NCBI RefSeq assembly: GCF_044324785.1
Contig: NZ_CP172127.1
DNA length: 64,000 nt
Origin: Escherichia coli
Lineage (GTDB): Bacteria; Pseudomonadota; Gammaproteobacteria; Enterobacterales; Enterobacteriaceae
Strand: one strand, 5' to 3'
The notes beneath the pieces are model-generated. The model was given only the letters and a program-made list of their open reading frames with translations. It had not been told where the DNA came from and ran no database searches. The position numbers were made by a program, and so were the translations under genes. Positions 26,587 to 26,721 of the stretch are shown in pieces; within the stretch, counting starts at the first letter, position 1, and each line of letters starts with the position of its first letter.

Positions 26587-26721
26587 ATGGTTCAGTGTGT
26601 TCGACATTTTGTCTTACCGCGTCTGAAAAAAGACGCTGGCCTGCCGTTTTTCTTCCCGTTGATCACCCATTCCCAGCCCCTCAATCGAGGGGCTTTTTTT
26701 TGCCCAGGCGTCAGGAGATAA
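26587..26721 (+). CDS. pyrL: pyrBI operon leader peptide
   Basis: 44-aa MVQCVRHFVLPRLKKDAGLPFFFPLITHSQPLNRGAFFCPGVRR; overlaps the attenuator hairpin. Confidence 0.9.
   Translation: MVQCVRHFVLPRLKKDAGLPFFFPLITHSQPLNRGAFFCPGVRR
26676..26701 (+). terminator. pyrBI attenuator (UTP-sensitive rho-independent terminator)
   Basis: GCCCCTC-AATC-GAGGGGC followed by T8, just upstream of pyrB. Confidence 0.9.

Follow-up and report, generated by a model that had tools for sequence, protein, structure and literature searches.

The closest described system to the locus reported here is the pyrBI leader of Escherichia coli K-12 with its pyrL attenuator (b4246), which was reportedly described by Turnbough, Hicks and Donahue in 1983 and by Roland, Liu and Turnbough in 1988. 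When UTP is limiting, pausing of RNA polymerase gives the coupled ribosome time to stop the terminator from folding and pyrB is expressed, and when UTP is abundant, pyrL is transcribed fast and transcription is terminated at the hairpin (PMC10135430). The polymerase pauses on the U-requiring template of the pyrL leader, and a 'previously described hairpin pause' in pyrL is mentioned as well (PMC10135430). The role of the ribosome in pyrBI attenuation is credited to Roland, Liu and Turnbough (1988) in two later papers (PMC5021804, PMC4824070). UTP-sensitive attenuation and reiterative transcription are both cited for pyrBI (PMC4491880); the pyrBI initially transcribed region (ITR) 5'-AATTTG yields AAUUUn transcripts, which are the non-productive result of slippage when UTP is high (PMC7039003, PMC6524683).

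The window analysed here was a stretch of 64,000 nucleotides of E. coli DNA. The leader ahead of its pyrB gene is the textbook pyrL/pyrBI attenuator, real, intact and ordinary, and an element already known in every respect. That it works as a UTP-sensitive transcription attenuator via transcription-translation coupling is held here to be almost certain.

The pyrBI leader and its identity with K-12

The pyrL leader peptide ORF (44 codons and TAA) was located by translation at 26587-26721 on the plus strand, with the ATG at 26587, the sense codons running to 26718 and the TAA at 26719-26721, and the deduced PyrL sequence was MVQCVRHFVLPRLKKDAGLPFFFPLITHSQPLNRGAFFCPGVRR. PyrL is a full-length member of its family with scores above the cut-offs, matching Pfam PF08052 (PyrBI operon leader peptide) over positions 1-44 of 44 with 117.1 bits (cut-off 25, E = 3e-34) and the NCBIfam equivalog NF007587 end to end with 120.1 bits (curated cut-off 61), and pyrL is annotated by RefSeq at the homologous position in K-12 MG1655 and strain THO-008. 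Its Shine-Dalgarno (SD) sequence GGAGG was read directly at 26578-26582 (plus strand), with the ATG 4 nt downstream, and this region, CCGGGAGG, showed almost no variation across the leader alignment (A3). A 110-aa ORF on the minus strand (26275-26607), lying over the yjgH-pyrL intergenic region and the first pyrL codons, was rejected as a gene; it is unannotated in K-12 and THO-008, gave no match in a Pfam search and is probably spurious.

The terminator scan gave one strong site on the plus strand, the attenuator (intrinsic terminator) hairpin AGCCCCTC-AATC-GAGGGGCT at 26675-26694, with 8 pairs (6 of them G-C) and a loop of 4 nt. Folded alone, it reached -15.9 kcal/mol (z = -4.66), which was equalled by 1 of 200 dinucleotide shuffles. 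The T8 tract, identified by the same scan and by sequence reading, occupies 26694-26701 on the plus strand (pyrL codons 36-39, ..AFFC..), and its first T (26694) doubles as the final stem base of the hairpin. An intrinsic terminator composed of a GC-rich hairpin and a U-tract is thus present within the leader ahead of pyrB (26675-26701), directly upstream of pyrB-pyrI on the same strand, and translation of the leader crosses the hairpin, which lies in codons 30-36, to stop 25 nt beyond it.

The end of T8 is separated by 23 nt, and the pyrL stop by 3 nt, from the pyrB ATG (26725), and the SD sequence AGGAG of pyrB (26713-26717, plus strand; direct reading) lies within the final two pyrL codons. 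The regulated gene pyrB (26725-27660, plus strand) encodes the aspartate carbamoyltransferase catalytic chain (TIGR00670, 419.8 bits; PF02729, PF00185) and pyrI (27673-28134, plus strand) the regulatory chain (TIGR00240, 243.5 bits; PF01948, PF02748). The upstream ORF was identified by family search as yjgH, a RidA-family gene with its stop at 26306, and the gene order bdcR-bdcA-yjgH-pyrL-pyrB-pyrI-ridA-mgtA is common to the window, K-12 MG1655 and THO-008 according to RefSeq annotation. The original prediction of a 44-codon leader ORF overlapping a GC hairpin and T8 just before pyrB was borne out to the base; of the span assigned to it, 26587-26701, the start is the pyrL ATG as given, but the end is that of T8 and the ORF runs 20 bases further to 26721. 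It had also taken 280 bp as the gap between yjgH and pyrB and explained that gap by pyrL and the attenuator, which proved incorrect: 280 bp is the distance from the yjgH stop to the pyrL ATG and the distance to the pyrB ATG is 418 bp. Lying outside the 280 bp, pyrL and the attenuator therefore account for the other 138 bp, nearest pyrB, and the final ~50 bp of the 280-bp interval hold the pyrBI promoter and the transcription start.

By direct reading, the pyrBI promoter was placed at 26534-26561 on the plus strand, with a -35-like TTGCGC (26534-26539), a 16-nt spacer and the -10 TATAAT (26556-26561), and we take it to be the main promoter P2 (Donahue and Turnbough 1990). It was not called in a scan for sigma-70 consensus promoters because its weak -35 matches the consensus at just 3 of 6 positions, and it was located instead through TATAAT, identity with K-12 and conservation. 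The -10 is followed by a discriminator of 7 GC-rich bases and by the ITR AATTTG (26569-26574, plus strand; start at A26569), which is the same as the published pyrBI ITR. The arrangement TATAAT, 7 nt, AATTTG is that of a reiterative-transcription sequence, i.e. an A start with at least three T, 7-8 nt past the -10.

Upstream of the terminator, folding gave a pause hairpin CCGCGUCUG-AAAAAA-GACGCUGG at 26617-26639 (plus strand; -11.6 kcal/mol, z = -3.86), as stable as which was none of 200 shuffles. The 35 nt between the pause and terminator hairpins are 37% T and 43% C and contain the U-rich tract GUUUUUCUUCCCGUUG (26646-26661, plus strand; direct reading), so that a U-rich region is in place after the pause hairpin and upstream of the terminator.

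Over 26512-26723, the 212 consecutive bases from upstream of the -35 to just past the pyrL stop region were 100% identical to K-12 MG1655, in which the leader has been characterised experimentally, and the identical block spans the -10, AATTTG, SD, pyrL, pause hairpin, U-rich tract, terminator and T8. Comparison with the characterised pyrBI leader thus gave no mismatch, and because of this identity the description of pyrL and its attenuator as intact is literally true. The designation as the classical UTP-sensitive attenuator is likewise supported by the presence of all the named elements, their identity with K-12, the matches to the PyrL models and the stability of the hairpin. That earlier account of the control region was right in naming pyrL and the attenuator and left out the pause hairpin, the U-rich tract and the AATTTG start.

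Fifteen substitutions relative to K-12 (13 sites, two of them 2-base) lie in 26307-26511, upstream of the promoter, and the yjgH-pyrL interval outside its promoter end is, to judge from this sequence comparison, less constrained. Within it, 26443-26449 is a C7 run in the window, CCCCTGC in K-12 and CCCCTCC in THO-008. Downstream of the identical block, the base before the pyrB ATG (26724) is A here and G in K-12; it was considered as a private variant of the window and rejected, as A is present in strain FDAARGOS_1249 too, and it is therefore an ordinary natural polymorphism. Codon 7 of pyrB (26743-26745) is CAA here and CAG in K-12, which is synonymous. The region is carried by 5424 of 5426 complete E. 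coli genomes, and none of the complete RefSeq E. coli genomes matched the window at 100% over 26540-26760. In the aligned E. coli strains, the stretch from the -10 to the stop is nearly invariant, with only two variable codons (ACC/ACT and CAT/CGT), both of which sit between the two hairpins and outside them.

A different upstream neighbour was observed in E. coli SCPM-O-B-7615, in which tabA, not yjgH, is annotated beside pyrL and similarity to the window (26307-26555) ends a few bases upstream of the -10. An alternative upstream sequence (ACTTTCTGGCTGAGTATAAT) is shared by E. albertii and E. coli E69. As coverage of the 418-bp intergenic query was below 80% in 606 of the 5424 E. coli genomes, a second upstream haplotype seems to be common in E. 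coli, and it probably lacks bdcR-bdcA-yjgH.

Leaders of other species

The survey was done with one genome per species by using a degenerate pattern for the first 11 pyrB codons, a pyrB-only pattern chosen to avoid presupposing pyrL, and 120 loci were obtained, mostly from Enterobacterales. Some ~115 loci, counting that of the window, had 200 nt or more of sequence ahead of pyrB, and 111 of these showed a GC hairpin followed by T6-9. Of the 110 other species with hairpin and T-run, 106 had an SD-preceded ORF whose end lay at most 15 nt ahead of the 5' edge of the hairpin, or later; the sampled species are related and these counts are therefore not independent events. When the 200 nt upstream of each hairpin were shuffled as a control, 20.9 such ORFs were expected (maximum 28), or 5.3 (maximum 11) for those with ATG and at least 25 codons.

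Of the 102 distinct leaders, 39 have their stop codon past the hairpin and 60 within it, and 3 stop 4-7 nt short of it. The 39 leaders of the first kind, which is the type of the window, encode peptides of 44-87 aa, and the 60 of the second encode 33-47 aa and stop mostly in the loop, 10-11 nt past the 5' edge, a location seen in every inspected leader of this type. The pyrBI leader ORFs thus show two architectures, with the stop either within the terminator or past the hairpin. Across all 102 leaders, the peptide ranges from 29 to 87 aa and is variable in sequence, and in Yersinia, Serratia, Rouxiella and Chimaeribacter the peptide bears no relation to E. coli PyrL, yet the RNA features are retained. 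From these stop positions, the ribosome would therefore always reach the terminator despite the varied length and sequence of the peptide. The conserved property is this reach, as the steric-block model requires, and not the peptide.

TATAAT is at the same position in 99/102 distinct leaders of other species and is followed after 7-8 nt by purine-T3-4-G in 99/102, the exact AATTTG being found in 73. At least 6 T per 12-nt window occur ahead of the terminator in 99/102 leaders, and a local hairpin at the position of the pause hairpin in 102/102, with stems differing between genera (CGCGTCTG/CAGACGC, CGTCGTCT/AGACGGCG, GCGCCTG/CAGGCGC, CCCTG/CAGGG and GGCAGC/GCTGCC). The terminator stem has an invariant GCCCC/GGGGC core, a loop-closing pair that is C-G or T-A and, in some genera, an extra G-C pair. 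RNAalifold on the MAFFT alignment returned 4 invariant C-G pairs and no covariation, seeing only the invariant core because MAFFT had set two stem registers one base out of step. Per-sequence folding was used in its place, by which covariation of the terminator stem is thin, with essentially one compensatory position.

Two side observations were made in the survey. An imperfect-palindrome repeat lies between attenuator and pyrB in Yersinia aldovae (L008, ~1380-1548) and Y. artesiana (L011, ~470-635), and the repeat moves the terminator to 100-213 nt upstream of the pyrB ATG; the spacing suggests that other Yersinia carry it too, and it presumably resembles ERIC/IRU elements. The locus listed as Citrobacter freundii M-21 (L116) has an Atlantibacter-type leader, near-identical to L085-L087 and unlike those of other Citrobacter, which suggests a mislabelled or misclassified genome record.

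In the minimum-free-energy fold of the leader, the pyrL SD region CGGGAGGA (26576-26583) is paired with the U/C-rich tract UCUUCCCG (26651-26658). Such a pairing would sequester the pyrL SD once the polymerase leaves the pause region, so that, if the pairing were true, only a ribosome loaded early could couple; this role is considered rather unlikely. The pairing was kept in 92.1% of cells in the 102-leader alignment, compared with 53-80% for slid partners and 89.6% for shuffles, and both-sided changes were found in 22 cells, compared with 5.9 +/- 2.0 in shuffles. Eighteen of these 22 changes fall in one pair (G-C to A-U), in leaders with the SD GGAGA and the tract UCUCC, and they probably represent one clade; a further three come from leaders in which CCAGGAGA pairs with CUCCUG, including Serratia marcescens. 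Any pyrimidine tract will be able to pair with a purine-rich SD, so the complementarity is partly compositional, and the pairing of SD region and tract is suggestive only. No description of it was found in a limited literature search, with the older pyrBI papers outside its scope.

Mechanism and alternative explanations

The K-12 mechanism applies to the window because 26512-26723 is identical to K-12 MG1655, where that mechanism was worked out. The anatomy, the identity with K-12 and the conservation across genera, as given above, were observed here; for UTP dependence, pausing and the part played by the ribosome, the source is published work. Transcription would begin at A26569. With plentiful UTP, RNA polymerase would pass the U-rich leader without long pauses and outrun the ribosome on pyrL, the hairpin at 26675-26694 would fold with the U8 tract and the transcript would end 23 nt before pyrB. 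With scarce UTP, the polymerase would be held up at the hairpin pause and along the U-rich tract (26617-26661), and the ribosome would catch up and cover the nascent 5' arm of the terminator; no hairpin would form, and pyrB and pyrI would be transcribed. A second UTP sensor would operate at the start, where high UTP would lead to slippage on the T3 of AATTTG and to abortive AAUUUn.

The hairpin and T8 might be simply the terminator of yjgH, or a generic intergenic one, with a fortuitous ORF overlapping it. A lone match would indeed be unremarkable, as ~0.7 terminator-like sites were obtained per shuffled 600-bp region, and a second weak terminator-like site lies closer to yjgH, at 26404-26418. 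The hairpin, however, lies 369 nt past the yjgH stop, after the conserved TATAAT and start and within an ORF matching the PyrL models, and it is linked to pyrB in more than 100 species and also in E. coli SCPM-O-B-7615, which has tabA instead of yjgH next to pyrL. This first alternative is thus effectively refuted and is given practically no weight. An activity of the PyrL peptide itself, in cis or in trans as for TnaC or SecM, rather than the ribosome as a steric block, has in its favour that a protein family model exists for PyrL and that conservation within Enterobacteriaceae is good over its N-terminal two thirds (MVQCVRH.VLPRLK..AGLPFFFP), but these codons coincide with the pause hairpin and the U-rich tract. 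Towards the C terminus, moreover, frame and length differ among genera, the ORF ending either in the loop (33-34 aa) or past the hairpin (44-50 aa), and the unrelated peptides of Yersinia, Serratia, Rouxiella and Chimaeribacter have kept hairpin, U-tract, terminator and ORF reach. The role is given to the ribosome in published work (PMC5021804). As frame, length and sequence of the peptide vary and the RNA features and the ORF reach are constant, a peptide-mediated mechanism is very improbable.

The remaining alternative concerns the relative weight of two controls, namely that UTP acts mainly at initiation, by reiterative transcription at AATTTG, and that the attenuator is minor. In its favour, the T3 start equals the attenuator in conservation (99/102), and reiterative transcription is reported to cut productive transcripts about 7-fold (PMC6524683). 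The attenuator, however, is also reported to terminate efficiently, with about an 18-fold reduction of a downstream reporter (PMC5021804). Its deletion is said to abolish most, not all, pyrimidine regulation (Liu and Turnbough 1989). Reiterative transcription is, moreover, a partner mechanism and no alternative, both controls being cited for pyrBI (PMC4491880), and a minor attenuator is regarded as unlikely. The ribosome-coupled attenuator, joined by a UTP-sensitive start, is therefore the reading adopted here, and none of the data speak against it.

An attenuator that ranks among the best studied in bacteria is present intact in this genome, and a normal response of pyrBI to pyrimidine supply is therefore expected. 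The comparison of ~100 species shows that what is under selection is the ability of the ribosome to reach the terminator rather than the peptide, and in the same species the UTP-sensing start (purine-T3-4-G) travels together with the attenuator.

Comparison with known systems

The search of 26300-26760 against Rfam reached no family at the gathering thresholds and gave nothing relevant at E up to 10, and no PyrR-type match was obtained in this interval. The best leader score was that of Trp_leader (RF00513) with 19.7 bits against a gathering threshold of 41, driven by the terminator hairpin, and the sub-threshold matches (Chlorobi-1, Hrs1, Trp_leader, STnc100 and others), all of which fell on this hairpin, were rejected as chance. 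Rfam 15 appears to be without a pyrBI-leader family, though this is a classical cis-regulatory leader, and the 102 leaders of alignment A3 could seed one. Elsewhere in the window, Rfam matches above threshold were the Mg riboswitch upstream of mgtA (31589-31704), Ysr276 (13699-13893), ES239 (62360-62482), naRNA4 (48039-48115) and a tRNA (2645-2726) on the minus strand and ES036/STnc450 (57609-57788) on the plus strand; the neighbouring mgtA leader also has, in K-12, a leader peptide, mgtL.

In the Bacillus pyr operon, termination in the pyr leader is likewise responsive to pyrimidines, but attenuation there is protein-mediated: PyrR binds the RNA and translation of the leader is not needed. 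The amino acid leaders trpL, hisL and pheL have in common with pyrBI a leader ORF, a pause hairpin and an intrinsic terminator before the structural genes. The pyrBI leader differs from them in having no run of regulatory codons and in a model that needs no alternative antiterminator hairpin, and its signal is the speed of the polymerase, set by UTP, instead of ribosome stalling for scarce charged tRNA. At the E. coli pyrE attenuator (rph-pyrE), the coupled ribosome is on the end of full-length rph and there is no dedicated leader peptide. The pyrE attenuator is likewise UTP-sensitive via transcription-translation coupling (PMC4491880).

Closer to the window are the short-leader attenuators of Salmonella, Citrobacter, Klebsiella, Kluyvera, Buttiauxella, Yersinia and Serratia, which share with it the promoter and start, the pause hairpin, the U-rich tract and the GCCCC/GGGGC terminator with T8-9 ahead of pyrB. 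Their ORFs stop in the terminator loop and encode 33-47 aa (33 aa in Salmonella arizonae), whereas that of the window stops 25 nt past the hairpin, and several Yersinia, unlike the window, have the repeat element between attenuator and pyrB. With the pyrBI leader of K-12 (b4246), the window agrees in all control elements and in gene order, and only the flanks differ.
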